Shown piece by piece: positions 1 to 24,284 of a stretch of 64,000 bases of DNA. The notes beneath the pieces were generated by a model. That model had not been told where the DNA came from. It did no database searches and saw only the letters and a list, made by a program, of their open reading frames with translations. The number at the start of each line of letters is the position of its first letter. Position 1 is the stretch's first letter. Source of the DNA: Psammoneis japonica (taxonomy: Eukaryota); the NCBI GenBank assembly GCA_008632985.1, contig QPGO01000112.1:124001-188000 (forward strand). Reading direction: 5' to 3'. Position numbers and translations under genes: made by a program.

Positions 1-1
1 C

Positions 2-379: not shown

Positions 380-503
380 AAAGTCGGCAAATTTGCGCAA
401 ATCTGGCAAATTGGCAGGTGCCTGCACAGTCGCCTGAGTGCAGAAAGTCAGCAAATTTATGCAAATTTAGCAAGTTATTTTGCACTGTCACAGTCGCCTG
501 AGA
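380..503. repeat. Two-copy ~64 bp tandem repeat
   Basis: aaagtcggcaaatttgcgcaaatctggcaa...cacagtcgcctgag at 380 and aaagtcagcaaatttatgcaaatttagcaa...cacagtcgcctgag at 444. Confidence 0.75.
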
Positions 504-1624: not shown

Positions 1625-1783
1625 AGCAGAACTCTTTCAACAGGGACCGGCGGACTCTAGGGGAGTGGGGTCAAAACCTGATCGAGAGATGTGTCTGCTT
1701 TCCGTTGCCTCAAGAGCACCCAAAGCAAAACTCTGTTGACAGGGACCGGCAGACTCCAGGGGAGTGGGGTCGAGACCCAATCG
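1620..1783. repeat. Two ~65 bp direct repeats, 99 bp period
   Basis: cccaaagcagaactctttcaacagggaccggcggactctaggggagtggggtc at 1620 vs cccaaagcaaaactctgttgacagggaccggcagactccaggggagtggggtc at 1719. Confidence 0.85.
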
Positions 1784-2302
1784 CAAGAAGCATTTGCTTG
1801 TTGTCGGGCTGCGAGCTGCATGTCCCAAACCCCCACACTGTTGAGACCGGCTGTAACTCGATCGCGACAAGTGCTTGTCGTTGGTGGGACGACGCAGCGA
1901 GGCACGAGGCAGTTGCAACATGGTGTGTCTCAATTTGAAATGTGTTTCAAAATGTGATGACGGAAGTGTTGTCGCGTTGTTTTTGTCTCCGCGGAGGGAG
2001 GATCATCCCACGGCAATCTCAGTGCGAGTTCTCGCGTAGAAGTGCGTTGCGTGCCGTGCCAGCTCGTGCGTTTGAATTGCACGGACAAACAAGTGCGGTG
2101 ACGATGAGAAGCAGGCCGAGATTCAAAACAAATTTTATCACCCAAAGGCGTCTCATCATTTCAACGCATCTGCACATCTGTTTAAAATGACTCCATGCGT
2201 CGCTCCATGCACAGGTAGAGGCAGCACGCTGCGTTTGAAAATTTCGCGCGCACAGAGGGCGCGACGGCAATTTTACGCATTCTGCGCACGTCACAGTTTG
2301 GT

Positions 2303-3052
2303 TTGGAAACGCGACGTCTGGTCGAACCCACTGCAAGCAAGGTTGATGTTGCCACAAGGTTGGATGCGATGAACCATCGTTGCAGAAGTGTTGGGGAGTT
2401 TCATCTTCAAACGGCTCCGGACTCCACGTTCCAGAGCAGGCATGTCTCTGGAGACGGAAGCGGATCTTCGCACGGCGGCGAAGTTGGCTTCGCTTTGAGC
2501 AGCGAAGTGTTTTTGAACGAATGCCTTCTTGGCGTGAATCACACCTGCGATGCATCTGTCGACATGGGCGGGGGAGTTGCCGGACCCAGCATCGGGCTCA
2601 AGTTACTTCGTCGCCGTTGCACCATGGTGAGCATCGAGGCCGACCACGATCGTCACCAAGAGGCTGTACGTTGGGCTCATCGTGCTGGCCTTCGCTCAAA
2701 CGGCGGGTTAGAGTTGATCAACAAGTCATTCTTGGACGAGAGGCTGGCTCCTTTGTGGAAAAAGAAAGGACTCAAGGTGTTCTTCAACAACTGCAACTCC
2801 CGCATGGTCGATGACAAGAACACACAGCAGAAGGCAGAGGCGGTGCTTTCGAAGTTGTGTTGTGCTGGGACCGTGGTGGTGGTGCTAGATCCGCTGTTCG
2901 CGTCGCACGCGGGAGAGTGGATGTGCGAGTCCTTCACGGCGGATCACCATGATGGCGACTTTTTGTGGCACAGCGGAGACGTGAAACATCTCGTCTTCCA
3001 CAAGTGCACCAAGAAAGAGGAGACTTCTCAGTCAACCAGCCAGCACATGTGA
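2303..3052 (+). CDS. DOT1-like class I SAM-dependent methyltransferase (TA-mutated)
   Basis: Motifs occur in DOT1 order: SHGGE (YGE), SVDMGGGVAGP (motif I, FxDLGSGxG), VSIE (motif II), INKSFL (GDFL), VFFNNC (IFVNNF/Y), GTVVVVLDPL (GxRIVSSKPF), FLWHSG...VFHK (VSWT...YYLH). Confidence 0.55.
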   Translation: METRRLVEPTASKVDVATRLDAMNHRCRSVGEFHLQTAPDSTFQSRHVSGDGSGSSHGGEVGFALSSEVFLNECLLGVNHTCDASVDMGGGVAGPSIGLKLLRRRCTMVSIEADHDRHQEAVRWAHRAGLRSNGGLELINKSFLDERLAPLWKKKGLKVFFNNCNSRMVDDKNTQQKAEAVLSKLCCAGTVVVVLDPLFASHAGEWMCESFTADHHDGDFLWHSGDVKHLVFHKCTKKEETSQSTSQHM

Positions 3053-3325
3053 CGTCCCAGTCCGACACACTTGGAACGGAAGTGTTTGCCCGTCGCGAAA
3101 CAGCCAATTTTACTTGAGAACTCAACTGAACTGTTTTTTTGCTGTCACTGCACTGGACGTCACACGCCAGTTGCTCCACTCAATTCGCCATTGCTTCGCG
3201 GTGATGACAAGTTGTCATCGGAGATGGCACATGCTTGAAGAGACAGAGGAAAGCTGAGTTGCAATCGACACTCAGTTTGCCAAACATTTACAAATTTACA
3301 CTGCACCGGCAAAAAAAAAAACAAC

Positions 3326-4198
3326 TCAGTCTTCGTCGCTGTCCTGAAGCACCAAGTCGTCATCGACGTTCAGGTCAACTTCGCAGTTGAGCTCGACATC
3401 ATCGTCGGCCTCTTCTCCAGCTTCTTCTGCCGGAGCTCCAATGAGACGACAGAGTTCCACAGGCAACGACCCCTCGTAGAAGCAACTGTGAAGTAAGTTC
3501 TTGTTTTGGGCGCACCAACCGATGTGAAACTGACCACCTTCCTTCTGAAGCTCGGCAAGCGCCGCCTCGTTGCCGATCACTTCGGACCAAACAGCATCCT
3601 TCATCCAGAAGAAGTTGTCTTCAACGAAGACCTCGGCGTTGTTCTCAGGGTCATCGTTGAGCTGCTTTGCAGTGCACTTCCCGAGGCCGGGCACTTTGGC
3701 ATTGGTTGGGACTTCTTCAAGGAAGATGAAGAAGAGACACACGGCGCAGTTCTTGGCGTTCGTCTGCAACTCGCCTTTGTGAACCCACCTGCCAGCGCAA
3801 GGGTGGAATCCGACTTGAACCGCCCACGGAGTCCTGCTGCGAAGGTTGTCAAACAGAACCTTCTCCGACCAAACATTGGTCAAAAGGGGATTCTTGGCTT
3901 GGAGACGAAAAACGATGCCTTTCTTGCGGCCGACAGTGACGGTGGCGCAGCGCAGGAGGGCGTCCTCATCGGAATGGCTGCCATCGTCAGAACCAGCGGA
4001 TTTGGAAAGCTTGAGCCCGTGCTTGGCAAGGCAGTCTTCCGGTCTAAGGTCGTCGTCGGTCAAGCCGTTGGTCTTGCGGGGCGGACTTGGTTTCTTCAAC
4101 AGAGCATCAGAAAACTTCATCTTTGCCTTCTTCTGTTTGGTTTCGGCGACTTTGGCTTTCGCAGCCGGGGAGGTCGTTGTGTTTCTTTTGTGTGCCAT
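3326..4198 (-). CDS. Unknown protein, Lys-rich N-terminus and acidic C-terminus (probable element cargo)
   Basis: About 290 codons from ATG 4198 (MAHKRNTTTSPAAKAK...) with a globular-looking core and a D/E-rich tail. No family recognised. Confidence 0.45.
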   Translation of the reverse strand: MAHKRNTTTSPAAKAKVAETKQKKAKMKFSDALLKKPSPPRKTNGLTDDDLRPEDCLAKHGLKLSKSAGSDDGSHSDEDALLRCATVTVGRKKGIVFRLQAKNPLLTNVWSEKVLFDNLRSRTPWAVQVGFHPCAGRWVHKGELQTNAKNCAVCLFFIFLEEVPTNAKVPGLGKCTAKQLNDDPENNAEVFVEDNFFWMKDAVWSEVIGNEAALAELQKEGGQFHIGWCAQNKNLLHSCFYEGSLPVELCRLIGAPAEEAGEEADDDVELNCEVDLNVDDDLVLQDSDED

Positions 4199-4743
4199 CG
4201 AATCAGTCAGAGAGAAATTGTGGGAACAAAAAGTGCGATCGTTCAGAAGTGCCAAGAAAGACCCAGCAGAGCTGCGTGCATCATGCCAAGGAGAACTGGC
4301 AATGTCAGCAACTAGATCCAAACACGTCGAACTGCAACAAGGCAACCTTCCAGGTGTCAGCACTTGCAAGTGGTGTGTGGATTCAATTTGAACAAAACAG
4401 GTGCAAGGATCGGAGCACGCAAAGTCACACCAAGTTTGCTGAAAATGCACAAAATCACGTGCAATTCCGTCCGCGCTTCGTGTGCATTTCAGCCGTTGCT
4501 GCCGCGCGGCCATCGCACACGAAATCTAGTCGCCAAACGGTCGACGCCATCGCTGTCACTGCTGCACCGGCAGTTAGCTAAGGTGGGCCCATCACCCATT
4601 TGGAGGATCCGCGCGCACTTTGGAAACACGAATGACGTCAATCGTGTTGTCATTGCCACATGACTGGCTCAACTGCCCCGCCACTCGTTAAAGCGTGATT
4701 CTGTGGAATTTGCGCAAAGCTGCGCCCACCACCAAGATTGCCG

Positions 4744-4844
4744 AAACAACTTGAACAAGATCCAAATCTCACCCCATGGAATGTTCAGAGCAGATGGTCA
4801 AAACAACTTGAACAAGATCCAAATCTCATCCCATGGGATGTTCA
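4744..4844. repeat. Tandem duplication, 57 bp period
   Basis: aaacaacttgaacaagatccaaatctca(c/t)cccatgg(a/g)atgttca at 4744 and 4801. Confidence 0.85.
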
Positions 4845-5035
4845 ACGTCGACGAAACCAAGCAGGATGTCATGCGTCTGGTGCGAAGAAGGACGTGGGAG
4901 GAACGCACACGTCACTCTTCCGTCGATGTGAAAGAGGCACACTTTCGTCTCACTTTTTTGTGACAGAACCTTTGCGCAAAGGGAGACGAAAAGCATCCAA
5001 CTGCGGTGATTGGGCCACACCGATCGTAGTTCTCA

Positions 5036-8000
5036 GTTCTCACAGTGACCTGGTGACGCAGGTTGTGAGATGACGCACAAGCTCAGCTGCGGTGACTGGA
5101 CGACACCAGCCACAGCTCTCACAGAGACCTGATCGCACAGGTTGTGAGAACACGACACAACGCTGCGGTGATCGGACAGCACCGACGCAAAACAAAACCA
5201 AAATTCTGCATTTATGGTGCTGCTGCGCTTCCACCCTGCAACTCCGGCAACAAGCCAACCCACACCCCCAGTGCACTAAAAGTGCGGCAGGAGCAAACAG
5301 TGGTCAGCCGAGATCGGCGTCACCCGAGGGTGACGCCGCGCCAAAATGACTTGCGATGGTTCTGGTGCCTCGTGCAGCCAAACGTTTGGCTTCGTGCATG
5401 CTTGATTTAAAGACTGGTTTGAACATGGCCAACCAGTTTCGAATCCGGTGAGTAGAGTGTGACAGGTGTTCTTCTACCGAATCAAGGAGGAGCGCCTTGT
5501 CTCTCGCAAGACAATCGTCTGTACGAGAACAAATGGCCTTGACCTCTGCTTCTGCGTCTCGTCTTTGAGACGACTTCCTCGTTTCCGAATCGTGTCCGTG
5601 TACAGCGTCGTTGTGAGCGTCCCAGAGGTCCCACCACTGCTCCCATGTGAAATTCCCAACAGTTGCAGCCCAATCCAGCCGTTTCTGTTGATCTGAGAGA
5701 GTCCGACAAATGCCGCTCGACGAAAGGCAAGAGGTTTGCGTCGCATTCCACTGGACAGAAAAACGGCCATTAAACAACTGACGCCAACCTGTTTCCCCTT
5801 GGGAATGAAATGCGGGCACGACGCTGTGATGAAATTGTTCCGAGCACAAAAGCTCGCCTTGAAACCATGCTTCAACAGCCAAAATTGTCAAGTCTCGTAA
5901 GGAAGGAGACGTGTGAATGTCATCGCACTTCTTGCGCAATCCTTGTAAAAATTTTCTGCGCCAGGCTTCATTGTGAGGGCAACGGAGAATGTGATCTCTA
6001 TCTTCCATGGGGTCCTGACAGTGAATGCAACAGTCCGGACGTGTCGGATTGTGTCTGTGTGCAATCTTGTTGGTGGGCAGAAGATCTTGAACCAGCTTGA
6101 CGGCACTGACTTTTCGACGAATGTTTCGTGACATCAATTTCGAATGAACGTCCCAATCAATCGATGCGTGTGCTTCGTCGGACCAACTGCATTTCTCTTT
6201 CATGTGCTGAACCAGTGCGGGACTTGACGCCTGACATCTGACAACCGGCTTGCATTTGGAAGAAACAGTGGCTCCTTGAAGAAGCAGGTTTGCTCGGCAA
6301 TGAGGCATGCGGGGAGCAGCAAGAGCATCGCCCGTAAATCGACCTTGGAATTGTCCAGCGAGTCTGTCGGCACGCATGTTCAACTTCGCCGCTTGAGAGA
6401 GAGAGTCAATGGGAAGGACATCGTCTTGGTGTCCCTTCACCCAGTGAATCTCGACTGTGGGACACAACAGTTCATCAGTGCGTGCTTCTGACAGCTGTCT
6501 TGGGGAATGGAAGACCTCATTGACAATGTCCCAATCCGGAGAGAGAGCACCAGCAATGTGAAAACGCCAGTGGAAGTCTCCTTGGATCTCCTCCTCGTCG
6601 GCAGGATGAGGAATCACCTGGAAATTCGAGATGGTGCGAATGAGAGCGGAATTGTCGCAATGCAAATCGGCGCCGCTGACCTGTGTGGAACAATGGTCTG
6701 ACAATCGGATCAGAAAACGGAGAAAAGACAGTAGACCGCATGCCTCCGCACGACAAGATGATGGGCGAAAACCGAAAACTGGACCAGCACAATCCACAAG
6801 AGGAACCCCGTCGACCGCAATCGTCCACCCGAATGCACCTTTGAAATGGAGGACCGAACCGTCGCCAGCTGCTGAAACCTTGTGGGCAACGAGGAGCTCA
6901 GCGATTTCAAACACAGACCGATGCAAGTGCAATTCTTTGAACAGAGCAGATTCCCACCGAGGAAGAGACCGCAGCACAGCCAAGAAATCATTCGGGACGG
7001 GAGGGACTGTCGGCAAGGATGCTGGAGAACCGAGTGACTTGATCCGCCACAAACCGGTTGCAGTCGCATCCACTGGCACAGGGGAAGCGGCTGGGGAAAG
7101 ATCTGGAACGTTTTCCAGAGCGGCAAGAGTCTCCGCACAACCTTGGTGCACTGGGAAAATCTCGAAACCCGAATCGCCACGAATGTGCAAGCAATCCTCG
7201 GAGGATTCGTAACACGCGACATGTGTCATGCACATTTCCGTAGCTGGTGCAACCCATTGACCTAAAGGGTGTCGTAGATCGAGCGAGTCTGGTTTGCAAA
7301 ACAAGGAACAGGCTCGACGCCACTGTTTCCATGCCCGAGCGGATGGACGTTGTTGTTCGACAGGATTCAGAGTGCTGCGACTGCTGAGAAGGAACGATCG
7401 GCCGTTCACTTTAAAGGGATCGAGCGAAAAACCATCCGGAGAGGCAACATCCGACAGAGTCAAAACATTTGGATAGAGACGACAGCAGTTGACCCACCGC
7501 ATCTCACGATCACTGAACGCCTGGGATTGAAGCACAACGTCCATGATGTGTTGGTCATTGTCTCGCTGGAGTGGAAGCACTCCAGCACAATCACAATCGA
7601 TGGTGGCATCGATCCGGGCCAAGAATGAACGTAAGGACACAAACCATTTCGATTCGGAATGAGGGAGCTTGGCATGGACGTCCTGAAGAAAACTCACACC
7701 TGTGCCAAGCTGCAACTGAATCCACGATGCAGCGATTCGCGACAACACCTGAGGTTGCCCAGAGCCCCGCCAGTGGGTGAGAAACTGTAGAACCTGCGCT
7801 GCACCCTGTTCCACGTCTAAAGAGCTGAAACCACGGACAGCACCGACGCAGTTCGTCAAGCAACTAATTCACTTGGCTGCGGTGACTGGACGACACCAGT
7901 CGCAGCTCTCACAGTGACCTGATTGCACAGGTTGTGAGCAAACAACACAGCGCTGCACCTCGCAATGTAGGTTGTGAGATGACGCACAAGCTCAGCTGCG

Positions 8001-8350
8001 GTGACTGGATGACACCAGTCGCAGCTCTCACAGAGACCTGATCGCACAGGTTGTGAGAACACGACACAACGCTGCGGTGATCGGGTGGCACCGACGCAGT
8101 TCGTCAAGCAACCAATTGACTCGGCTGTGGTGACTGGACAGCACCAGTTGCAGTGCTCACAGCGACCTGATTGCACAGGTTGTGAGAAGACGACACAGCG
8201 CTGCGGTGAACAGATGGCACCGACGCGGTTCGTTGATCAACTGGACAGAACCACTGCGGCGACTGGACGACACCAGTCGCAGTGCTGCAGGTGGTGAGAA
8301 AACACACATCGCTGTGGTGATTGGACAGCACCGATCGCAGCTTCACGGTG
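5036..8350. repeat. Degenerate ~120-130 bp minisatellite array (5036-5189 and 7834-8350) split by a LINE insertion
   Basis: Recurring gctgcggtgactggacgacaccag...ctcacag.gacctgat.gcacaggttgtgaga...gcaccgacgca. 5060-5189 is nearly identical to 7969-8098. Confidence 0.85.
5190..7833 (-). mobile_element. 5'-truncated non-LTR retrotransposon (RT C-terminal region + RNase H + Cys/His knuckle) with 17 bp TSD
   Basis: ORF 5304-7859 carries RNase H motifs (AGDGS, SSCRAEACG, HCDN, HWVKGHQD, NMRADRLA) and CIHC...EDRDHILRC. An exact direct repeat cggacagcaccgacgca lies at 5173-5189 and 7834-7850. Homologous to the element at 37-45 kb. Confidence 0.88.
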
Positions 8351-8427
8351 ATCGCACTGAAAAAACAACCATTTTTGCTGAGTGACTTCTTGAAATTTGT
8401 TGAGTTGAAGCATCAGCTTAAATTAAA

Positions 8428-11400
8428 ATGGACGAGGCCAACTCCCGTGTTTGCAATGCAATCAACAGAAAGTTTGAGATGCTTTGTCTGCACAGAGACG
8501 GAGAATTTAGACCACACCCATGTTCAGTCTGTGACGTTCTGCTGAAACCTAGAGAAGTTTGCCACTTGCCACTCGAAACATTGGAGTCAGCAAGAAACTT
8601 GCTCACCCCTTCAGACTGGAACAGCGCATCTGATTGTCTCAAGTCCTGCCACACTGTAGAGCATGAAGATGCTGATTGGATCAAAGACCTGCTGCTTTCT
8701 CCCCGCACCCAATGCGCAGCACAGGAAGACAGACGACGCGTCGACGGATTCACTTGCTGCAGCGAATGCCGAAGAAGCCTGGGAAGAGCCGTCACGCCAA
8801 TGTGCGCGACAGCGAACAACTGCTGTTTCGGCACCCCACCGCACAAACTGTTGTCTCTGACCGAAGTAGAGTTGGCAATGCTCACACCAGTGAAAACATG
8901 CGGGCGCTGCTTCAGTTGCCTTGGCGGCAAACAGAAGAAGCTTCAGGGAAGTCTGACATGCTACAAAGTCAAGATGCAAAGCATCGCAAGAGCTGTTGTG
9001 CACTTCGACGCACTGAATTTACATCAGAATGTGATTGCACTGATGACTGGAAAGATGACTCCGGAGCAAAGACAACTTGCACGTTCAAAGAACAGAATTA
9101 GGACGCACTGCATGCTGCGGGTGATGGAATGGCTGTTGCACCATGACCAAGAGTGGGTGTGCCAACAGACAAATCTAGACGAAGTCAGGCACAATCTGCG
9201 GAATCCCGCACTTGTCGATGGCACCAGCGAAGAAGAAGGAGAAAATGCGAACATTGAGACCTCAGAGTCATTTCATGTTTGCTTTCCTGATGGAACCATG
9301 TCTCCTGCGACCGGTGGTCAGCGCAACCTGGACTGCTTCAAAGATCTTGCACATGAAGCTGCTGCCAATGGATTTGATTTAGAGGTGCAAGCACAGTTGT
9401 CTGAAGAATCTGCGAGTGATTTCAAAGGCAACAACTTCATCAATGCGTGTCTGCTGCAGTTTCCTTTTGGCAGAGGAGGAATCAATGAGACGAGAATGAA
9501 GAAAGACGGAAGTCTCACAGATGGCACCAACCTTGCACACTGTGCCGACCACTTGGCATGGATTTCCCAGCCTCACTTCCACGAGCAGCTCTTTGTGTTA
9601 ACATGCTGCAACTTGACAATGAAGCAAAGGATGCCACAGAGTGCAGGGTGGAAAGTCAGGGACAAGAATCAGGCTGCACAGTTTGCAAACGAACCAACAG
9701 TGGACGACGTGGGTGGAGCTGTTTGTGATCGCAACTTGGGCGAGAGAAGAGATTGTGGACTCGGGCACCACTTTTTGCACGCACTCGACGTTGTGTCTGC
9801 GTCTCTGCCACACAGTGACGAAGCAGCAAAGAAAATGAGGAGAAATGCCGAAACTCATCAGCATCATTTTGGTCAGGGTGGCATTTTCTTAACCGTCAGT
9901 CCGGACGATGCAAATTCGTTTCTTGTGCAACTGCACTCGGGTGTCATCCTGGACCCAAACGAAGATGTGACACAACTGATGGACGAAATTCTTGCCAGCA
10001 GGGCTGAGCAACGTGATGAACTGCGTCTAAAGTTTCCCGGTCTAACAGCCTTTGTGTTCGAGTGCTTGTTTGACATTGCAATGGAAGAGGTGGTGGGTTG
10101 GGATCTGAGTGCCAACCAACCAAGAGAAAACTTTAACTTCTGCATTGGCAGGCCAGCCGCATTTTTAGCTGCAGTTGAGGAGCAGGGACGTCCAACAGCA
10201 CACGGACACATGCAGATCTGGTTTGCATCGATCAACAATGCAAGAGAGAAACTGCATTCGCCAATGAGACAGATCCGACGCGAAGGTGCTGAGCACCTTG
10301 CCAACATGGTTCAGAAGATCTGCAGCATGGAATTAATCTGCAGCGAGGACTTCAGCACTGGCGCGTTGCATGAAGCATTCGACCATGACTGCACAGTGCC
10401 AAAAATGTGTCGCACCTCTCCAAAAGTGGCAGACAACCAACAGCTAAGAAACCTGAGGCATGAAGACGGCCAGCAGTCGAAGAACGGAATGTTTGCTTGT
10501 TGTCATCACTGCACCAAGCACTGGACAAACGTCGAGTTTGTAGAAAGCTTTTTACAGTCACGGCACCGTGTGCCTGGCCTGACTCGCCATCCAGACAACC
10601 ATGCAAAGCGACTAAAAGCAATGTGTGTGCAACACCAGCGAAGTGGTCCGCAAGGGGCAACAGAGGCACACATGCCGGACGCAGCTTACAACCATCACAT
10701 GCACGTTACGAAGTCGTGTTTTCCCAAATGCGCAGAGTTGCGTAAAATGCGCAAAAAAACCCCACACGAGGAACTGGACATGCAGTCAAGGAAAAGGAAA
10801 CGAGAGGAGCTCAAACCAGGTGACTGCCGTCACAGGCAACCAGCTGCTTCATGTCCAAATAATTTGGCAAGGAACGCAGATGACACTCAGATGAAGTGGT
10901 TCAGCTGGGATGGAACTTTTGCATGTCGGTGCGTGAAGGAAGTTGTTCCGAAGAGGAGAAAGTGCGATGCTTTTCAAAATGTGTCGAGCCCTGCAACAAG
11001 CAGATCAAAACTGACATGCAACACAAACATTGCTTTGTTGATGCCTGGACCGTCCACTCAACACACGATTGAGCACATCCTAAAAGACACCCAGAAAGAT
11101 GACACTGCATCGTACGACGAAGTGCTTCAAACTACGAACAGGGTGGCGACGGAATTACGGAAACACGCATCTGATGCATCGGAAGCAATCAGACGTCTCA
11201 CATGGGGTGCTTGCTCGCATGACAAGACGAACATCATTGGACCACCACTTGCGTCTTGCATGACAAGGAACGGAAGCCGTTTCATCGAATCTCATTTGAC
11301 CGCATGGTGCCCCTTGAAAGACATTGTCAGCACACTGGAAAGAGACGAAGTGTCTGCGACTGCAGCCCATTTTGGCGATGCACCGTTCTTCCAATGCCAG

Positions 11401-14076
11401 GCCTTGCACTGCCCATGTCGTCCAACAGCACTGGAGAATCTCAGTCCGTTTGCATTTTTCAGTGAATGCAAAGTTCTTCGCAACACAAGGAAAAACGAAC
11501 ACGGCATGATGATGTTCGACAACAGAGCGCACAGGCACCCGTCTCACAATTCAACGAAGAATGAGTTTCTTCAAGGTGTCAGACAGCGACAGCAACCGCG
11601 ATTGTCAAAAGCACTTCAGTGTGATTTTCCTGATGCAGCCAAGTTTGGCAGTTGCCTCATAGATCCGCAGCAACCAACAACACTGGACAAAGAATTGCAC
11701 TGCAAGTTGGCATTGGCCTTGTTTGCGCCTTACAGAACAATGACGGAACTCAAACCAATGACCCGTGCACACCTGCATGAATTCCAACTCTCCGCAGTAG
11801 CCGGTGTTGTTGCAGAGGAAAACTTGAACTTCTTGCAGAACCCACAGGATGCTAAGTCCAACTGCCTTCGTCTCAAAAGTGCATCTGACGATCTGCAAAG
11901 AAAGACGGAGCAATTTAGACCTGCTGACGTTGCGTTTGACTGTTGCGAAAGTGACGAGGAAGAAGGTCTTTCAGGCGCCGTTCAGGGTCAACTGCTGGAT
12001 GCACTCTTGGAAGAAATGGCAGAGCAGCCAGAAGACGATGACATTGGGTTGAGCGACCAAGCAGTTGTTCCTGCACATTTGAGCGGCAAACATGCAAGAC
12101 AGAAAGGTTCACACATGGGTGGTTGCAAATGCTTGGCAGACACGCACACTGACCCACCAAACGAGGAAAGCCAGGTTGATGAACGACAACTTTTTGAGAA
12201 TCTAGAGGGCGGCGATGACACCGACGAGGAAGACCAGAATGAAGGAGTGCAACAACACATCCACAGCAGACCACTGTCAAGAGACGACATTGTTCGAGTG
12301 ACACTGACTAGAATGCAAAGAACAAGAAGGTTGTTTGAGGACATGACAGGTTTGGAAGAACACGTCGATGTACGTCAAGCAAACGGATCTGCAGCAAGCA
12401 TCGTAGACTGGGCTAGGAAAGCAAGACTGGACAGGCAACAGCAGCGTGCCTTTGAAATTCTAGCAGGAACCTTTGTGCTCACTTGCTGCCAAGACGCTCT
12501 TCAAGATGAGACGTCACACAATGGACTCAACAGGAGAAATGGCAGACACGAATTTGCAACAAACCTTCGCCGATTGAAGAAACTCGTGGAAGTGCAAAGA
12601 CGCAGAACGTTGCAACTTGTGTGTTTTTTACATGGTGCAGGTGGAAGTGGCAAATCAACCACAATGGACCTCGTCGTGGAGTGCGGAAGAGAGCATTGCT
12701 CGCTCATTGAGCAGCCGTTCACAACAAGCACAATCAGAGTGACTGCACTGACCAGAGTGGCTGCGACTGTTCTCAAAGGGGACACAATCCACCAAGTTGC
12801 ATGCCTCATGAGAAGAAAGCAAACAACCGAAGAGCAAATTGAAGCATGGTCAGACACGAGACTTTTGGTGGTGGACGAGATTTCTTTTGCAAGCAAGAGA
12901 GAACTAGAAAAACTCCATGAGAATTTAACAGCATTGAAGAGCGAACCAAGCAAGCCGCACGGTGGCATCAACATTGTTCTCGCAGGTGACCTCAGGCAAC
13001 TAGAGCCAGTTGGAAAAGGAGTGAAACCACCACACAAAGATGCATGTCCCGAGTTTCACGAGTGGATCAACTGCTGCATGGAACTTCGTGGTGCACACAG
13101 GTTCAAAGACGATCCATCATGGGGAAAACTGCTCAAGAGATTCCGCACTGGCAAGATTGCAGTTGACGACATGGAGCACATCAACGAACGAGCAGTTCAG
13201 AATGAAGATGATCTGCCCAGTGACCTCCGCTGTGCTGTGTGCGCAAATGAGGACAGAGATGCAATTGACACTGGCCTGTTCGAAAAAAGAGCAGAAACAC
13301 TGCACAGAAGAGATGGAGATGTCCTTGACTCAATGTTGATTTTCAGTGACGACTTGCAGGTGCAGAATGGCACGAGACTCTGCCAACCATTTCCGGTTTG
13401 CAACAGCTTCTGGAACAACTGTGGTGAAGGAGACGTTGTCATGCAATCAGGAAGAATGGATCCAGTCTTACGAATTTACAGAAGATGCAGAGTCATGACA
13501 CCTTTCAACGAAAATGTGGCAAACGGTCAAGCAAACGGAACGCAAGCCACTGTTGACAAGGTCGTTCTCAAACCAGGACAGGAACCAAGACAGTGACTTT
13601 AGACAACAACATTGGCATTCCTGCTGCACTTGCAGTCAGGTGGACCATGTTGCATTGGAACACTGCAACAAAAGCATCGACCCCGCGAAGTTTTTAGTTG
13701 AGCCAAAAACAAATGCTTTCAGGGCTTGCATCGCCAAGCCCAGCCTAATTTTAGAAGAAGGCGACAACAAAGGCACACTTTCCAACTGAAGGCAACCCAG
13801 CTGCCGTTTGTCATCAACAATGCCACTGCAGGGCACAAACTGCAAGGGAGTGGAGTCCCGCAGTTGTTTGTACACTCTTGGAGCTGCACTCAGAATTGGG
13901 TGCATGTTGTGCTCTCCAGAGTAAAGACCAGAGAAGGGCTGTTCATGCGAAAGCCACTGAGCAAGGACCTGCGAAAATGCAAGGTCCCAGAAGGCTACGA
14001 AGCCTTGACAAGACTCATGAAGGAGAGAAGCGCCACGCATTTTTCTCAGCAACAGTGCGCAGAAATGTCAATGTAG
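8428..14076 (+). mobile_element. Helitron-like Rep (HUH) / PIF1 helicase gene; frameshifts near 13595-13790; TA-mutated
   Basis: 1722-aa ORF plus shifted tail. Rep motifs: GGIFLTVSPDD, AVEEQGRPTAHGHMQIW (E.Q.R...HxH), HTIEHILK (YxxxYxxK with Y->H). PIF1 motifs: GAGGSGKS, VVDEIS, GGINIVLAGDLRQLEPV, HRFKDD, ANG, ATAGHKLQG, HVVLSRV. Termini not identified. Confidence 0.92.
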
Positions 14077-14222
14077 TGCGCAAACATTGGATTAGGATGC
14101 TCAACCACTGTGCAACTGTTTGGCGACCCCAACCGTAAAAATGCGGAAATTTCGTAAAATAAAATGTTTCGATTAGATCAGCACATTGCGCAGAAATCTG
14201 CACATGCGTCACACAACGTCGA

Positions 14223-14796
14223 ATGGATTTTAACCAACAAACCAAGAAACGCGAACGCAACCGTCACAGAAAACGCAGCAACAGAGAAAACATGGATTTG
14301 CAACAACAAACAAAGAAGGCAGACGAGCCAAAGAAAACTGGTGAGGACAAGAAAAAGGTGCAGACACATGCGGAACTTCTTCAGTCATTGATGAACAGGA
14401 AGACGAAGAGGAGATTACCTTGGAAGAAGCAAGAGCGGCGTTTGACCTTGCTCGGGAAATTTTGATGTCACTTCTGCACTTGTGCAAGACAACACGACAG
14501 TGGACAGTCATCATGTGGAAACAACAGTCACGCCCAAGGATGACTCAACCATGGAGGAGCTAAAGGCAGCATGTGCAGCGGTGATTCCACAGCGGTCGGG
14601 GAGATTTTTCACCGAGGAGGAGATGGCGGAGCAGGAGAAGGAGCAAGCAAAGTCCCTTCAGAAGAAGCATGGCCAGAAGAATGGAATTGAGCAAATTGCA
14701 AACAACCATTTGGTGAAGACAACCGCATCAATGCGCAAAATGCACGCACATGGACTTTCACTTGAGCCGCCGCGGATTGAGTGTGGCCACAAATGA
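14223..14796 (+). other. Possible frameshifted K/E-rich ORF downstream of the helicase
   Basis: Overlapping charged ORFs 14223-14465 and 14482-14796 within the TA-depleted block. No family recognised. Confidence 0.25.
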
Positions 14797-16024
14797 GGAC
14801 AACCTTTGCAAAGAAACTGCAACAATGCGCAAATTTCGCACATTTCCACATTCACTCTCAATCCAACGCAGCTTGCCTTGGACAACATCAACATGCACAA
14901 CTGGACAACATCAACACACACAGACAGCCTCATGAAACCTCACAGAAGACAGAACGGTCAGAAGCAAAACAACCAGCACCACGCACTGGCGCATGTTAGT
15001 CATGTCGCGTGGGTCGCGCAAAAGTGCGCACCGAAATGACCGTCATGTGTTGCAATTAATTCGAATGCCCGGCGCAAAATGCAGCAAAATGATTGGTGCA
15101 GGCAATCGTCATGGCTCTGTTTTCTGACAGCCCTGCTTGTGCACAGAAACGCGTGGCGAGGTCCTGAGCATTTTCGATGGCACAGAGCCTTGCCACGGGT
15201 TTCTGTGCCATCTGCGACAAAGCTGCGTAGATTTGCGCTGAAATAAATCTGAGTGCCGCATGTCTGCGGTAAGATCTGCGTGAAAAGAACTCGAAACCTG
15301 TCCACCGAGCCGGCGTCATGTGCCGGCCGTCGTGAAAAATGTGTTGTGTCTGAGAAAGAGTTCGTCAGGGCCGGCGAACAACACACCTCTACGATGCGAT
15401 TGGTGCAAAATCTACGTAAATGCACAGAAACCAACATGTGGCTTCTGTGCAAATTAGAGCTCGTGAAAAATAAGCAGGGACAGCAGCGAGGGCGGCAATC
15501 CAAAATCTTTCGGTTTCAGACTTCGATCTAGAGAGTTCCACCTAAAAGAGGAGGAACCAATTACTACGGATTTTTTTGCGCGGTGCGCGGAGGCCGTTTT
15601 TTTTCCCTCGACCTATCGCCAACAACCCACCATCACATCATCGGCGCTGCACCCCGACAGAGCCGCGTAGATGTTATTTCTTCGCCGTTGAGGCAGAACA
15701 ACCATTGCGGGTGATTTCCACCCTTTCCAACGCCATTTCTTATTTCATATTTATGCTTACTGTCGTTGCTGCTGTTTGTTCTGCGGCAATTGGCTCACAT
15801 GCATAAGGTTGCTATTGTTGCTGCTGTTGCAGATAATATTCTGGCTATGAATCACCAATGTGGGGGGCCAACGAGAAGAAGTATGCTTTGTTTAGGTGTC
15901 AATGTAAGTTACATTGTTATCTATCGCGTTGTTCTTTTTTACTCAATGCATTTCATGTAATGCCTTGGCATTACTTACTAACACGAGCACATTATCTGTC
16001 TTACTATTGTTTGCTTGTAGAGTC

Positions 16025-16284
16025 AGAATTCATTGAGAGTATACCGTTATGCCGTGGCAGCATCACAGCATTACGTTTTTCCCGGATTGAGGCGCCGGGG
16101 CCGATGCCAAAGGAATGGTGAGGGTACGCACACCAAGAATTTCATTGAGAGCATACCATTGTGCCGTGGTAGCATCACAGCATTACTTTTTTCTCGGATT
16201 TTTGGTAGCATCACAGTGTTACTTTTTTCTCGGATTGAGGCACCGGTGCCGATGCTAAAGGAATGGTGAGGGCACACACACCAA
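16025..16284. repeat. ~111 bp tandem duplication with an internal ~35 bp sub-duplication, 3' of the piggyBac ORF
   Basis: agaattcattgagag...ggaatggtgaggg.ac.cacaccaa at 16025 and 16136. Confidence 0.9.
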
Positions 16285-16445
16285 CAAAGCAATCATTCAT
16301 CAGTTGGAAAGAACACTGGGCAATGGGTATTGTGCATGAGGTTTTCCACCGGCATCTTCAAAGAGATAGGTGCAGGTAAGCTTGTGTCATGTTGTGGCAT
16401 CTAAGCAAGTTATGTTTTTGTCACTCACTAAGTTTTATGTAATGC

Positions 16446-19400
16446 CTACCTGTTCCTGATATGACCTAGGTGATCGTAATCTGGCCAGCACACTTTGCAA
16501 ATTGCTTCACCACATTTCCTACAGCCGTACAAAGATGTACGACTTCCTTTTCTCAAGGTAGCGTAATCGGCATCTGGCATCGTCAATCTGGCCTTCCTTA
16601 TGCAATCAATGCAGTCTTTGCTATGGTTCAGTATCTTGATTGCTTTCTTGTCGTGCACAATATCTTCTTCCCGTACAAGTCTCTTTCTCCCTTTCTTTGG
16701 CCGATGAGTCTTTCCATGCGTGAGGCCGTGCTTGCAGAAAAAGCATTCTCCACAGCCACAAGGTACGTACGGCTTCTGTCTGACCCATTTTGGCTTCGTG
16801 GTGGGGTCGTTTATGTTTGTCCAATCCATGCTAATGCCTTTGTTGATACACTGTATTCCCAGATCCATCATCCACTTGAACTTCCATCGTGTGGTCTTGG
16901 CATATTTTCAAAGGGGTGTCCCACTGTTGAGAGCTTTTTTGTGATCACTTTCATTGCGTGAGTTACCCCGTCCATGCAGTAGTACATGATGCGGAGGTAG
17001 TATCTGTTTCCCTTCAAGCTGATAGACCAGTCAGCAGTCTCCCTGTCTTCCCTGTCGACAGCACGCATGAACTTGATATAGTCGGGGATGACCGCATGGG
17101 ACGAGACTGGAACTCGGCTGTGCTCGTCGTTGTCCCACCGCAACGTTTTGTGATCCCCAGGTACGCCCACCATGTGGTTGTGCAACACGCCAACCTGTTT
17201 TCTGTCTTTCCAAGTTGTTGCCTGTACTACAAACCCAGCCGAATTGCTCTTGTCTCCTTGCACAGTCTTCTGAGCCCAGCGTAACCACCCACGAGGCACC
17301 TTGGACAATGCTCCGGATGACAGTTTGTGGAAGGGGAAGTCGGTTGCTGTTCGTGACTTCTTTTTCGTCATCTTCACGGTGCCCACCACCAACATGCCAT
17401 ACGTGTCATACACCAGTTTCATGAGCTGTTCCGATGTGTAGAAATTGTCGGTGTACAGCTTGCGTCCTTTTCCCGACAACACTAGTTCGGGGTCCATAGC
17501 CAACAACCTTGAAACAACTTCGAGTGGCGATGCATCATCATTGTCCTTGCCAGTGTAGACATAAAATGCATATAGATATCCGGTTTCTGCGCAGCACAAT
17601 GCCCACACTTTTATGCCGTGTTTGATGGGTTTAGCGGGCATGTATTGAACAAACTTTACAGCCCTTCCCTTGTAGAGAATCATGGACTCATCAACCGTTA
17701 GCTTCTCTCCAATCACCCACCCGGCCCTTAGCCTTTTGCCAACTTTGTTCACAAATGGGATTATCTTCTGCAATGGGTGCCATCTTGAAGTGCCGTGCCT
17801 TGGCAACTTTCTGTTGTCGACGAAATGGATGAATCTTCGAATCTGGGTGAAGGCATTTCGAGACATGGAGTGCTGAATCCATGGCACTGCCAAGTCATGA
17901 GTTTCCATCCACAGGAGGTCTTGCCACTGGAGTTTCATTGCAGCCAGAACAAACAAAACTCCAAACCAAGCAAGGAGGAACCCAGGAGTGACTTGGATCC
18001 AAGGCTTTTTTTTGTCCTTGTGTCTCTTCCTGCTGTCAGGGTGGTCCTCCTCACATGGAACCAACCTGGCTCTCCTCTTGGGCTCTTCCTCAAACTCATC
18101 CCCAAGCTCATCATCTGAGTTGCAGCCTTTGCTGCTGCCAACAGACCAGTTGGAAGAATCGCAAGAGGAGACAGAGCTCTCGTCATCAGAAACCATCCAA
18201 AAGCTCCCGTGCACCCCAAACGATGAGTCAGTGTCACTGGAGTGAGAGGACTGGTCGCTGGATTCAGAGGCGCTGCTGCTGCTGCTGCTGCACTTGTCAG
18301 GGTCAAAAATTGATCCACCAAAGAGGGAGTCTCCATCGTCCATAAAAAAGCCCGGCTGCCTTGCTCCATCAAATCAAAATCCAGCTCCAACTGATCACAA
18401 TCAGCCACAATCTCACAGTTGGTTGCATGCCCATGCTCCTCATCTTGCTCATTCTGATCTTTAATTTGTTGCCACTCTTGCTCAGTCACAGGCCTGACCC
18501 ACTCTTCGTTGGCACAAAAGTTGGTCTCCTTGGCAACCTCCTCTAAGTCGTCAACCGTGACAAAGAAGAGAAACAAGTCAACAAGAGACTTGCAGGCTTG
18601 CTTCACAGCCCATGATGGGCCACAAACACCCCCTCCACCAGGGCCTGCATAAGATCCAGACCATCCAGGTTCCCAGTTAGAGGACCCCTCATTCTCCCAC
18701 CCAGGTGGAACAGGCCTTTCAAGCTCGGAATCCAGCAGCTCTCTCTTCTTTCTCTTGGCAGCCCAAACATCAGATAGAAGCTCCATTCCCTTGCCTTTGT
18801 CCACAAATTTGAAGAGGCGATTGTCATTCACCACATCAGCTTGTGCCTTGGCATCAACAATGGAAGAGTGAGCTTCAGGAAGCACCTCCTTGTTCTTCAC
18901 ATGACACCAAATTTCTCCCAAGCTGTAGCCAACAACTTTGGATGTCTTGGCATTCAGGGCACAGGACTTGCAGTGCTCAATTGTCTTCCTTGGGTCACAA
19001 AAGTGCTTCAGCCCTTCAGGCATGGACAAGGTTTTGCGATGGGTGTCTTCAGCAAGACGAAACATGCACTCGCAATCACCTCCCTTGCCTCCCCATGCCG
19101 CCAGAATCCCAACCTTGGAGCCTGCATCCAACTTGTCTTCTACAAACTTGCAAAATCTTGGCCAAACCAATTCCATTTTATCAGCATTGGCCATGCGGGG
19201 ATCAGTGAGCTTGAGTTTGTGCGACTCCTGGGAGGCCCTCTCCATCTCGTCGGTCCACTTGGTTCCTTCTGGAGGCTTGATGTGCTCGTCAAATTCGCCG
19301 AGTGTAGACTTGTCATTTGGATCTACTGCAACAGCTGAGAGCTGCAGCATGCCACACTTCTTCCCTCCATGCTCCACATCAACATGAAAAAGTGCACATC

Positions 19401-19636
19401 GTCCTGCAATCCAATCATCATGGGCCACAGAATTTGTTTGACGAGGCGCTCTCTGAGCTGGTGCCGGCACGTCATCAGGTTGTTCAGCAGAGGCCAAGGG
19501 AGCAACGCCGGACTCCAAATCAGCATCCTCCACAGATGTGTCATCGGAGCTGAACGCAAGCATGGAGATGTCCATTGTCTCCATGATGTTGCCGACGCTC
19601 ATGTCACCAACACCGTGAAAGACGGTTGTTTTGCAC
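16446..19636 (-). mobile_element. piggyBac-family transposase with N-terminal DEDDh exonuclease domain and C-terminal Cys-rich domain; frameshifts near 18345 and 16870
   Basis: piggyBac motifs: DLFLFFVT...KETN, MSRNAF.QIRRFIHF, VDESM, YMPAKPIKHGIK, TDNFYTS, MRAVDREDR. C-terminal CxxC clusters at 16446-16871. N-terminal VDVEHGG...GDC...AHSSIVDA (DEDDh). Likely splice acceptor ttttcag at ~19637. TIR/TTAA ends not identified. Confidence 0.88.
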
Positions 19637-21310
19637 TGAAAAGAAAAAAAAATAGAGCAAAAAGAGCAAGGGTAAGCTGAGGGAATGTTGAATGGGAAAA
19701 AGGACACTCTGATGCAACAGAACAACAGCATTGTGTTGCATTCTTGCCGATTTGTTTGCTGTTCCACCAGATTCTGCCAGCAGGATGCCGAAAACGATGA
19801 CACCGTTTCTGTCAATGTCGGTCGGTCACGCCTGTCGTGATGCAAGAAATGCCGATACGACAGCAGGTAAGATGCGACGTGAAAAAACAACGCCAAGGCA
19901 ACAACAAACCAAACCAAGCTGTCGCAACACACCTTGCCGTGTTGACGATCACCCCGCATGGTGTTGGGGTGCCATCTGTTGCAATGACTCGGAACCGCGA
20001 CATTCCGTTTGTTGTGTTGTTGATGGTGGCCCCGTTTCAACGCACGCAAAAAAAAAAAAAAATTCGCGCGTGTCGCTGTGGCAAACAAAGAGTCAAAGTT
20101 AATTCGGGGTTTCGCGCGACAGTCTGGCAGGGTTGGGATGGCCATCGCAAACAGGAAGACACGTGGAATTTGCACCAGAACCTGCACATTTAAGTCAGAA
20201 ATTGAGGGAAGACATGCAGAACATGCACCAAAACCCATGCAGCTCGACATTTTTGATGGAAATGGGTGATGTCTGGCCGTTGTGCCTGCACAGTGCGTGG
20301 GCTGCGCATCGCTCAAATCCCCAGCACAGCTTCTGGTGCCAATTCTGCGTGCCCCCAATTTTTTGGCAGGCAGGCAGTGTTTCTGTCCACAATGTCATGC
20401 AAAACCCCGAATTGATTTTGGGCCGGTTAAGAATGGCACAGGGCAGGCGTGTTGTCCAAAACTTTGAGTGCGAGCAGAGATGTGTGCACTGCAAACTTGG
20501 CCGTTCATTTTGTGTCAAAGACAAATGTGTCCATTGACCAGAGCATGGACTGCAGAGCTTGTGCGCAGAATTCTGCAGGGCAAATGTCACAAAAAGTCCC
20601 GCCTGGGGCTGGAGCCCGTCTGTCGCAGGTCTTGTGCTGGGAGCCACGTTTTCCAACTCGCGCTTCTGCAGAATCAGCATTGTTGTTGTGGACAGCCCAC
20701 AGATGCAGGAATGCCCGCACTGCATTGCCCCCTGTGACAAGGTTGTGTGAGTGACAGAAGGTCCCACTGCTGGCAAGGGACTCTTTGACAGTGGATTTGA
20801 GAATGGCTGGTGCTGTCCCCCCCCCCCCCCCCCCCCCAAGAGCACTCGTTGACTGCAAAGTGCTTTTCCAGAACTTTTCTTGGAAATGGATGGCTTCAAC
20901 AAACAATCTTTGCAGCTTTGCATTGCCTGATTGTCATTCGCGATTACGTGTTGAATTACACGGGAGACACGGGAGAATCAACGTGGAAATCTTCCGCGCA
21001 TCCCGCCCATTTTTCAGATTTTCCGTCTGTCGTCTTCCGTTCAAAATGGTCACATTGGTTGGGAATCAGGAGTTTTGAAGTTTGGATCTGACGCGAGTGA
21101 ATGAGTCAATGGCAACCAAAGCAACGCTTCACGTGCGTGGTGACTGACTTCATCATCAAACATCCGCCACAGGTGTCACTGTCACACCGTACTATATCCT
21201 TGTTATTGTGTTGTCGACTATCCCACGACAACCTCTGCCACCGCAGCGATCTAACTTGTTATCGCCTTCCTCATAGCGCTTCTCATTATTCGTGTTGTGT
21301 TCTCTCTAAC

Positions 21311-22018
21311 ATGGTCAAGACTCAGCTAATCCTTGCTGCCGCCATGGCCGGGGCGGCTTCAGCGTTTTCAGCCACATCGATGAAAATGTCGGCATCGGTG
21401 AGTTGGACTTTGCGAACCGTGATTACCTGCTTGTGTTGGATCTTTCCCTCGTTCGCTTGATGACATGATCACGTTGCGCAGTCATGACACTGTACACATC
21501 TCTTTGATGCAGGCAGTCACATTCTCACTCGGTCTGTATCTTTGTCGTTGCAGGAAGGACTTACCTTCGGACGTCGCGACGCCATTAAATCGGCAGCTGC
21601 AAGCACTACCGCTGTTGTTCTGGGCATGCCCTTGATTGCTTCCGCCGAAGTCGAAGTCCCTGCGCAAAGCACGGAGTACACCTTTCCGGATAACTGGGGC
21701 TTGGATTTCAAGTACGAAGACGATGCTGCCAAGGTTCGGGAACACATGTTGATTGCTACAGGTCTCGCCAAGGGATCCGAAAACATGGAAGACTTTGGAA
21801 AGAATCTCAAGAAGGAAATGATTGACTTTGTTTCCTACTACAGGCGCTTTCCCAAGGTGGCTGGAAAGCCATCTTTCTCCACTCTTTACACCGCAATTAA
21901 CGTTTTGGCTGGACACTACACTTCCTACGGCTACAAGTACCCCCTTCCCGAGAAGAGACGCAAAAGGCTTTATCAAGAGTACAACGAAATTGCCAAGTCA
22001 CTTCGTCGCGGCCGTTAA
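21311..22018 (+). CDS. psb27: Photosystem II assembly factor Psb27; exons 21311-21397 and 21554-22018
   Basis: Signal peptide ending ASAF, GT-AG phase-0 intron, twin-Arg lumen signal GRRDAIK...IASA, then the Psb27 signature FVSYYRR...SFSTLYTAINVLAGHYTSYG...PLPEKRRKRL...RGR. Confidence 0.92.
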
Positions 22019-22161
22019 ATGGAGAACTGAAGTTTCAGTTTGATGCACGCATCCGGCAATCGATTCACCTAGCGGTTATGGCAATGAAGTTGTGGAGGAA
22101 GTCAAGCCAGTCTCCTGCTCCCATCATTAAACTAATAGCCGCATCGTATCCAGCAAAATTA

Positions 22162-24246: not shown

Positions 24247-24284
24247 GAAGCGAACTGTCTAAATGGAAGCGAACTGTCTAAATG
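24247..24284. repeat. 19 bp tandem duplication
   Basis: gaagcgaactgtctaaatg x2. Confidence 0.85.

Follow-up and report, generated by a model that had tools for sequence, protein, structure and literature searches.

The question raised by the 64,000-nucleotide stretch considered here (contig QPGO01000112.1, positions 124,001 to 188,000; hereafter the window) is why the dinucleotide TA has almost vanished from long blocks of it, and which base was changed in which sequence context. Over the whole window, the observed-to-expected ratio (o/e) is 0.29 for TA, 1.48 for TG and 1.46 for CA, and the depletion is blockwise: TA o/e drops to 0.02–0.26 per 1-kb bin in 1–15000, 18001–21000, 31001–49000, 57001–58000 and 61001–64000, where TG and CA o/e lie at 1.2–2.3 and the G+C content at 0.47–0.57, whereas 1-kb bins outside these blocks keep TA o/e values of 0.43–0.81. 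The interval at the centre of the question, 8428–14076, holds the Rep/helicase open reading frame (ORF) of a Helitron transposon lying in the first of these blocks. A preliminary description of this interval held that the surviving TAs are mostly of the form YTAR (Y, pyrimidine; R, purine) and took this as the trace of A-to-G changes at 5'-TAY on either strand. As argued below, a context-dependent mutational process acting on TpA is very likely responsible.

The TAs can be divided by their flanks into YTAR, sites with one favourable flank (RTAR or YTAY) and RTAY, and splits are given below in that order; the depleted set comprises 40,000 bp and the control set 21,500 bp of non-depleted, neighbouring host-gene DNA. 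Within 8428–14076, the 53 remaining TAs split 28/22/3, while a first-order Markov expectation for the same DNA gives 31/49/19 % (p 0.0011). All depleted DNA together retains 225 TAs, split 114/102/9, versus 932 in the control, split 180/496/256 (chi2 115.9, p 6.9e-26), which bears out the predominance of YTAR among the survivors. Expressed as survival per kb relative to the control, this amounts to 0.34 for YTAR, 0.10–0.12 for the single-flank classes and 0.019 for RTAY. The share of YTAR moreover grows with the depth of depletion, from 0.46 in 1–15000 (125 TAs, 57/62/6) to 0.62 in 31001–49000 (60 TAs, 37/21/2) and 0.70 in 61001–64000 taken together with 57001–58000; in the block 18001–21000 (6/13/1), the bias is not significant. 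Two finer details of the preliminary description also hold: four of the five residual TAs at 9001–9600 (TTAC, TTAG, CTAG, TTAG and TTAA) are of the claimed type, and TTTAAA is kept in both 101-base copies near 36.2 and 36.6 kb, which differ from each other by two CA/TG swaps and two CG/CA sites. Because host DNA may stand in poorly for the ancestor of a transposon, the comparison was repeated with a matched reference, namely 10 undepleted Helitron ORFs picked from 80 metagenomic loci (full-length matches, TA o/e 0.51–0.71). Here too the Helitron ORF of the window stands apart, with a split of 24/19/2 versus 369/1216/663 (p 1.1e-10), and it has 45 TAs compared with 205–288 in undepleted relatives of the same length.

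The survivors can be described by a model in which the two strands mutate separately, each with a rate that depends on the nucleotide immediately 3' of the A, so that the survival of xTAy equals f(y) multiplied by f(complement of x). A Poisson maximum-likelihood fit with 300 bootstraps over 1-kb chunks gave cumulative doses (bootstrap range in brackets) of 0.33 (0.12–0.51) for TAA, 0.74 (0.52–1.00) for TAG, 1.40 (1.14–1.72) for TAC and 2.56 (2.15–3.26) for TAT. The rates thus follow the order TAT > TAC > TAG > TAA, at about 8:4:2:1, and this order held in 300 of 300 bootstraps. The context model is far superior to a context-free one (likelihood ratio chi2 194.3, 3 df, p 7e-42), by which equal depletion of all 16 NTAN contexts is rejected. 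YTAR sites, especially TTAA, CTAA/TTAG and CTAG, are the last to disappear, since their flanks are unfavourable on both strands. An exploratory look at the base beyond, over all depleted blocks, found A at position +2 enriched among the survivors (ratio 1.73), TACA and TACG surviving with TACC and TACT nearly absent, and TCTAAA, TGTAAA and TTTAAA as the commonest surviving hexamers; the rate probably depends on the +2 base as well, a pyrimidine being faster than a purine. The preference for the 3' base is therefore graded, not binary. The preliminary proposal of an A-to-G change at 5'-TAY on either strand is supported by this two-strand fit and by the tyrosine outcomes and the TGC gain described next, and is refined by the graded order, the +2 effect and the fact, shown further below, that YTAR is not immune.

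A survivor pattern of this kind does not by itself tell which base mutates, as a mirror model, in which A is mutated when a purine lies 5' of the T, predicts the same survivors. The two models predict opposite outcomes for lost tyrosines: replacement by histidine reports T>C on the coding strand, whereas replacement by cysteine reports A>G on the coding strand, where the 3' base is always a pyrimidine. The Helitron protein has only 5 Tyr in 1722 residues (0.29 %), compared with a mean of 3.35 % in 47 homologs, while His (4.59 vs 2.92 %) and Cys (4.41 vs 2.63 %) are raised by about the amount of the missing Tyr. For the alignment of the window protein with 45 homologs, P0009 and P0017 were excluded from the reference because they are Tyr-poor themselves (0.8 and 1.04 %). 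In the 31 columns with at least 60 % Tyr in these homologs, the window protein has Cys 14 times, His 9, Phe 4, Tyr 3 and Arg once. Counted by preceding purine/pyrimidine, His stands at 7/2 and Cys at 4/10 (Fisher p 0.036), in agreement with the earlier remark that His mostly follows a purine and Cys also a pyrimidine. The codons caa CAC, gag CAC, aac TGC, ttg CAC, gag CAT and tct TGC occur at conserved-Tyr columns; of the examples cited there, gtg CAT and tcg CAC lie outside the conserved-Tyr columns found, and at 11113 the codon in TCG|TAC still encodes Tyr. The exception noted at about 43333, gct CAT in the ORF of a long interspersed element (LINE), is indeed a conserved-Tyr column now occupied by His after a pyrimidine.

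The same asymmetry is seen beyond the window. A scan of metagenome contigs yielded the 80 Helitron loci mentioned above, four of which have TA o/e below 0.2: L002 (0.03), L013 (0.09), L049 (0.17) and L043 (0.19). The protein of L002, an independent metagenomic Helitron, is 44 % identical to that of the window; it has 2 Tyr in 1882 residues and carries Cys 11, His 5, Phe 4 and Leu 1 at the conserved Tyr columns, with His at 5/0 and Cys at 3/8 by preceding purine/pyrimidine (p 0.026). When five elements are pooled, His stands at 17/4 and Cys at 8/22 at the 60 % threshold (odds ratio 11.7, p 1.9e-4), and at 21/7 and 16/26 at a 40 % threshold (p 0.0033). Since His mostly follows purines and Cys mostly follows pyrimidines in both the window and L002, it is the A of 5'-TAY that mutates. 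The mirror model is rejected, its predicted tyrosine outcomes going the opposite way. The gain of xTGy set against the loss of xTAy agrees, with the gain concentrated in TGC and none in ATG; this product accounting serves solely to reject the mirror model, because host DNA is a stand-in ancestor and the accounts are only roughly consistent. L049 repeats the YTAR bias of the survivors (13/3/0, p 3.8e-11). As to P0009 and P0017, both also have raised His and Cys, and the footprint is thus present in other assemblies.

That the 5' T is obligatory can be read from first-position A in conserved (at least 50 % in homologs) Ile, Met, Thr, Asn and Lys columns of the window Helitron and L002. After T, all 16 such As became G and none was kept, whereas the changed and kept counts were 0 and 41 after A, 0 and 67 after C, and 4 and 42 after G, that is, 4 changed and 150 kept after the three other bases together. 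The change is strictly TpA-specific. Even in the slowest context, T|AA, conserved Asn and Lys codons following a T in the window were converted in seven of seven cases, and YTAR is therefore slow, not immune.

What these changes did to the Helitron is plain from its Rep nuclease. The hallmarks of the family are still recognizable, with Helitron_like_N and PIF1 found by Pfam, the HxH motif kept, and a two-tyrosine motif (QYxFKYxxK) whose two Tyr columns are 100 % Tyr in the 45 homologs. The aligned motif reads QHTIEHILK in the window, where both tyrosines are now His, and QCNFKHVLK in L002, where they are Cys and His and the HxH motif is likewise kept. With both catalytic tyrosines replaced by His, the window copy is inactive, and their loss points to a mutational origin, as selection cannot explain it. 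The ORF also ends about 150–190 residues before its relatives; the other copies found in sequence run X1 have an extra T after 13591, so that the window copy is probably frameshifted at 13591–13596. The frame is otherwise open over its 1722 codons. According to the genetic code, TAA becomes TGA or CAA and TAG becomes TGG or CAG, and no codon is turned into a stop by TA>TG or TA>CA. From control to depleted DNA, TAA falls from 9.9 to 2.4 and TAG from 10.0 to 1.7 per kb per strand (TGA 21.8 vs 17.2). A dead element can thus keep its ORF, because stops cannot be created and TAA and TAG are erased. For the same reason, long unannotatable ORFs are to be expected on both strands, and these may not be genes; those of the depleted DNA that lack a Pfam match run from 378 to 851 aa and often overlap ORFs of the opposite strand. 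Both strands were changed about equally, as judged from Cys 14 versus His 9 at the conserved Tyr columns; in the Helitron ORF, whose relatives are already A-rich on the coding strand, TG occurs 463 times and CA 548 times. Host genes adjoining the blocks (the Psb27, TPR, phosphoserine phosphatase and MFS regions) stay at TA o/e 0.58–0.74, and partial depletion, with TA o/e 0.3–0.5, is seen at the edges of the blocks.

Besides the loss of TA, the same blocks show a loss of CpG. The CG o/e averages 0.50 in depleted 1-kb bins and 0.94 elsewhere, and it follows TA o/e with a Spearman coefficient of 0.78 overall and 0.74 within depleted bins, which suggests cytosine methylation of these transposons. 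Values of 0.05–0.3 are reached in 31001–37000, 45001–48000 and 61001–64000. This methylation-type CpG decay is a second, separate process, which inflates the excess of TG and CA but cannot remove TA. Contigs of run X1 (one of three runs of one sample, possibly the window's own source), aligned to 1–20000 at 80 % likeness, revealed many paralogous copies. The alignment comprises 4549 pieces, whose depths add up to 2,000–6,000 over most of 1–15300 versus about 280–530 over 16009–19343, an excess which marks block A1 as multi-copy. Transitions account for 1232 of the 1604 places tallied by change type. Among the 40 differences listed of 1608, 18–21 are CG in other copies and TG or CA in the window, 4–7 are TA in other copies and TG or CA in the window, two are TA in the window and CA or TG in the others, three are CA/TG swaps, and the rest are of other kinds. 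Since other copies have TA at 4 of these 40 sites where the window has CA or TG, the three swaps left aside, some TA change postdates the divergence of the copies. Repeats within the window number 13 pairs, all short, and the few differences within the two best pairs could go back to either TA or CG.

Several observations weigh against this reading and should be considered together. The ancestral state is a proxy throughout, be it host DNA or the ORFs of relatives, and not a reconstruction. The two-strand model fits fairly but not perfectly (Pearson chi2 24.2, about 12 df, p 0.02) and leaves some strand asymmetry, such as GTAG 24 versus CTAC 12, while the crude product count finds a TGT gain of 3.2 per kb, far below the TAT loss of 10.3 per kb. 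Differences of the CA/TG type between copies can derive from ancestral CpG too. The LINE ORF taken alone lacks the His/Cys asymmetry: in its C-terminal part, aligned with 37 pieces (39 of the 150 matches listed covered most of the query, and two with less than 2 % Tyr were dropped), the columns with at least 40 % Tyr now hold His 6, Cys 2, Tyr 1 and others 4, with His at 4/2 and Cys at 2/0 by preceding purine/pyrimidine. Finally, two of the four TA-poor metagenomic loci do not conform: L013 has no YTAR bias in its depleted part (1/8/2), and the 2053 bases of L043 run contrary to the model (2/19/1), with CTAT/ATAG making up 10 of 22 survivors. This last locus keeps 4–6 conserved tyrosines and may represent a different situation from the window.

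Taking these points into account, the interval would best be explained as a dead Helitron inside a transposon block that was driven almost to completion by a region-targeted mutator acting at the DNA level. Such a mutator would convert the A of 5'-TpA-3' to G on each strand independently, turning TA into TG or CA, and would kill elements by missense (Tyr to Cys or His, catalytic residues included) while their ORFs stay open. Its target is probably silenced, methylated transposon chromatin, as the CpG decay of methylation type in the same DNA indicates. That the footprint lies on a Helitron as well as on a LINE shows the process to work at the level of DNA. As to the chemistry, a deaminase recruited to silenced DNA may convert adenine to hypoxanthine, which is read as G. 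This adenine deamination is put forward tentatively, with a chance just short of even; the statement as a whole, a context-dependent TpA mutator with adenine deamination in silenced DNA, is regarded as rather probable.

The alternative that survives best places the chemistry on the other base of the pair. A TET/JBP-type dioxygenase or another enzyme would modify the T of 5'-RTA-3', for instance to 5-hydroxymethyl- or 5-formyluracil, which would mispair with G or be misrepaired, giving T>C. This is the strand complement of the same footprint, and A>G at TAY and T>C at RTA are inseparable by sequence; the CpG decay in the same blocks makes enzymes acting on 5-methylpyrimidines plausible there. 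Modified thymines of a comparable kind are known, since base J occupies the T of TpA in kinetoplastid telomere repeats, TpA and TpC are the preferred sites of 5-hydroxymethyluracil in dinoflagellates, and 5-formyluracil promotes A:T>G:C transitions. The base J site, however, is TTAG in GGGTTA, the most resistant context here. The authors of a preprint on a comparable process in Bigelowiella natans (10.64898/2026.01.13.699255) favour adenine deamination, in its main text as a proposal only, and thymine modification is considered unlikely, if still a serious contender. Far less credit is given to error-prone repair synthesis of the polymerase eta type at silenced DNA, with A>G at WA motifs (W, A or T). 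This polymerase produces A>G at WA hotspots in somatic hypermutation, and CpG decay would supply the G:T mismatches that trigger patch repair, but the change seen here is strictly TpA and not WA: As after A gave 0 changed and 41 kept, those after T 16 and 0, and AA o/e is 1.2. In addition, a TA o/e down to 0.02 and a clean 3' hierarchy look like the direct specificity of an enzyme, all of which makes polymerase eta very improbable.

It might also be argued that there was no mutator at all, either because the transposons are intrinsically TA-poor, through selection or descent from a TA-poor donor genome, or because modified bases misled consensus or base calling. L043 is TA-poor and yet keeps several conserved tyrosines and other TA contexts, as might an active element of a TA-poor genome. 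In the window, on the contrary, 28 of 31 conserved tyrosines are replaced, both catalytic ones included, which selection would not permit, and unrelated element classes share the pattern when adjacent host genes do not. An artefact is contradicted by the 1210 of 4549 run-X1 pieces that are at least 99 % like the window, at contig word depths from tens to about 1000, by the loss of TA in independent metagenome assemblies such as that of L002, and by the de novo TpA mutations seen in short-read data of B. natans, as far as the preprint's main text describes them. The absence of any mutator is accordingly held to be highly improbable. Least credible of all is A-to-I editing of transposon double-stranded RNA by an ADAR, fixed by reverse transcription, since the Helitron, a DNA transposon without an RNA copying step, is among the most affected elements, unannotated non-coding flanks are equally depleted, both strands are changed about equally, the 3' order T > C > G > A runs counter to the preference of ADARs for a 3' G, and ADARs are not known outside animals, even though a LINE is among the affected elements and the main text of the B. 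natans preprint credits ADARs with a preference for U 5' of the edited A (10.64898/2026.01.13.699255).

The coordinates of the blocks, genes and elements on which this argument draws are collected in the table.

Table. Blocks, genes and elements of the 64-kb window
Feature	Position	Strand	Remarks
Block A1	1–15300		TA-depleted, TA o/e 0.04–0.26, CpG near normal; multi-copy; holds Helitron
Block A2	17751–21000		TA-depleted; 20 TAs in 18001–21000
Block B1	31001–49500		TA o/e 0.00–0.13 (500-base bins), CG o/e 0.09–0.6
Block B2	60961–64000		TA o/e 0.03, CG o/e 0.09; YTAR 6 of 7 TAs
Small TA-depleted islet	57001–58000		within host DNA; TA o/e 0.22; YTAR/single/RTAY 8/6/0
Control host-gene DNA	21488–30500		TA o/e 0.58–0.74
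Control host-gene DNA	49601–57000		TA o/e 0.59
Helitron Rep/helicase ORF	8428–13596	+	1722 codons, open; Pfam DUF6570, Helitron_like_N, PIF1/AAA_30
Rep nuclease two-tyrosine motif	11062–11076	+	both Tyr now His (CAC at 11062–11064 and 11074–11076)
LINE-like non-LTR retrotransposon ORF, EEP endonuclease part	38885–40861	+	Pfam Exo_endo_phos, E 1.5e-8
LINE-like protein, C-terminal part	42484–44046	+	1 Tyr in 520 residues; same protein as EEP part
101-base copies	36236–36336 and 36544–36644	+	93 % alike; TTTAAA kept at 36283 and 36591
Long ORF	5304–7859	-	851 aa, no Pfam match, depleted DNA
Long ORF	17935–20394	-	no Pfam match, depleted DNA
Long ORF	488–1624	-	no Pfam match, depleted DNA
Long ORF	3326–4513	-	no Pfam match, depleted DNA
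Photosystem II (PSII) Psb27	21488–22015	+	host gene
TPR protein	26151–27041	-	host gene
Phosphoserine phosphatase	51364–52422	+	host gene
MFS transporter	53277–54398	-	host gene
AWPM-19-like protein	within 49601–57000		host gene in undepleted DNA
HVA22-like protein			host gene in undepleted DNA

The host genes indicate what kind of organism carries these blocks. For the phosphoserine phosphatase, all eight legibly named organisms among 120 listed homologs are diatoms (Stephanopyxis, Asterionellopsis, Pseudo-nitzschia, Ditylum, Odontella, Coscinodiscus and two Chaetoceros), with a best identity of 71 %, and the nearest Atlas cluster of Psb27 is mostly Bacillariophyta. These two genes point to a diatom or a near relative of diatoms, and not to Bigelowiella, as the probable host. 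The Atlas cluster of the MFS transporter pointed instead to Chlorophyta, but as phylum was known for only 5 of its members it is given no weight in this assignment. Regarding the other elements, the C-terminal part of the LINE protein has 1085 homologs at E <= 0.001, the best of which are proteins of 1500–1900 aa with EEP and a weak RVT_1. Most other long ORFs of the depleted blocks matched no Pfam family, a search of the window against Rfam gave zero matches, and no deaminase domain was found in the 114 window ORFs scanned with Pfam (154 ORFs of at least 110 aa were listed). A piggyBac-like transposase ORF at 16868–18373 on the minus strand (DDE_Tnp_1_7, E 5e-41) has 15 Tyr in 502 residues; TA is near normal across 16868–17750 and gone from about 17751 on, still inside the ORF, which might represent a recent insertion or else a domesticated gene adjoining hypermutated DNA. 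The entire 17-kb block B1 is flanked by a 146-base inverted repeat, 77 % alike, at 31685–31827 and 48808–48951, which may delimit a single large composite element. Tandem units of about 120 bases lie at 7840–8290, shortly before the start of the Helitron ORF, and a further 130-base copy, 95 % alike, is found at 5060–5189.

In the literature on TpA hypermutation, including that on diatoms, stramenopiles and transposable elements, the sole parallel found is the B. natans preprint (Mettrop et al., bioRxiv 2026, 10.64898/2026.01.13.699255). In mutation-accumulation lines of this chlorarachniophyte, its main text counts 230 of 231 de novo changes in two integrated viral regions as A>G or T>C, without exception at TpA, and finds transposase and reverse-transcriptase domains overrepresented in coding sequences low in TpA; for the agent it suggests an adenine deaminase, with ADAT2 as candidate, although as a proposal only. 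As far as that text goes, the two systems share the near-exclusive A>G and T>C change at TpA, giving TpG and CpA, and its regional action on selfish DNA with neighbouring host DNA spared. They differ in the host, which here looks like a diatom (Stramenopiles), in the extent, which here is near saturation (TA o/e 0.02–0.26) and in the giant-virus region of B. natans reaches a Rho of 0.45, and in the targets, here two kinds of transposable element (Helitron and LINE) within multi-copy DNA, there integrated viral DNA. Furthermore, the process of B. natans is documented by de novo mutations and the one here by its sequence footprint. The main text of the preprint contains no analysis of flanking bases, which may be given in Table S2 or in Fig. 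2B ('specific mutation motif'); relative to that text, the order of the 3' bases and the identification of the base that mutates seem to be new. The window further adds a probable diatom host, near-saturated transposon footprints, the frame-preserving property and the link with CpG decay.

Among better-known systems, repeat-induced point mutation (RIP) of filamentous fungi is alike in that it introduces transitions at specific dinucleotides, ruins transposons in the manner of a genome defence and can be recognized by the resulting dinucleotide skew. Under RIP, CpA/TpG becomes TpA, the DNA grows AT-rich and new stops appear, whereas here TpA becomes TpG or CpA, G+C is gained and no stops arise. 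As an explanation of the window, RIP itself is rejected, as the blocks have changed in the opposite direction, with low TA, a G+C content of 0.47–0.57 and falling TAA and TAG. It could be conjectured that diatoms, and perhaps, in view of Bigelowiella, much of the stramenopile, alveolate and rhizarian (SAR) supergroup, carry a dedicated double-stranded DNA adenine deaminase that acts at 5'-TAY on silenced transposon and viral DNA as a genome defence, and that this would amount to fungal RIP in reverse, with elements disabled through missense changes and their frames left open; this joint claim is doubtful, without being far-fetched.

TadA, ADAT2 and the TadA-derived editors resemble the agent sought in deaminating an A preceded by U or T. 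Natural TadA acts on RNA, and the natural substrates of ADAT2/3 have G, A or C, not U, after A34. Here, TAT is the best context, TAC comes second and the 5' T is obligatory. The TadA-like TAC context suggested in the preliminary description therefore survives in part, TAC being favoured but not most favoured. Among the editors, ABE10 (the adenine base editor ABE8e with A48E) prefers a 'YAC' context, which overlaps TAC, as stated in a review (PMC13109818). The hyper-editing by ADAR and the action of APOBEC3 in animals are alike as deaminase restriction with clustered transitions in selfish elements, but their substrates are RNA or the single-stranded cDNA of retroelements, and here a DNA transposon is changed on both strands with a preference for a 3' pyrimidine. 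Finally, deamination of 5-methylcytosine at CpG shares both the blocks and the products TpG and CpA, and nevertheless cannot remove TpA.

If this explanation is true, TpA-directed hypermutation is not confined to one chlorarachniophyte, but also shapes the transposon DNA of a diatom-like alga, and diatoms are a group of major ecological weight. The hierarchy of flanking bases is a measurable enzyme property, comparable with the de novo mutations of Bigelowiella and with candidate enzymes, and the fingerprint as a whole (an obligatory 5' T, the 3' order T > C > G > A and a favoured pyrimidine at +2) would let the enzyme be identified. We know of no enzyme that naturally converts A to G in double-stranded DNA, and the agent would thus be of interest to builders of base editors. 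For genome annotation, it is important to stress that dead elements can keep very long ORFs, as does this Helitron with its 1722 codons and both catalytic tyrosines lost, and that spurious long ORFs on both strands can mislead gene callers.

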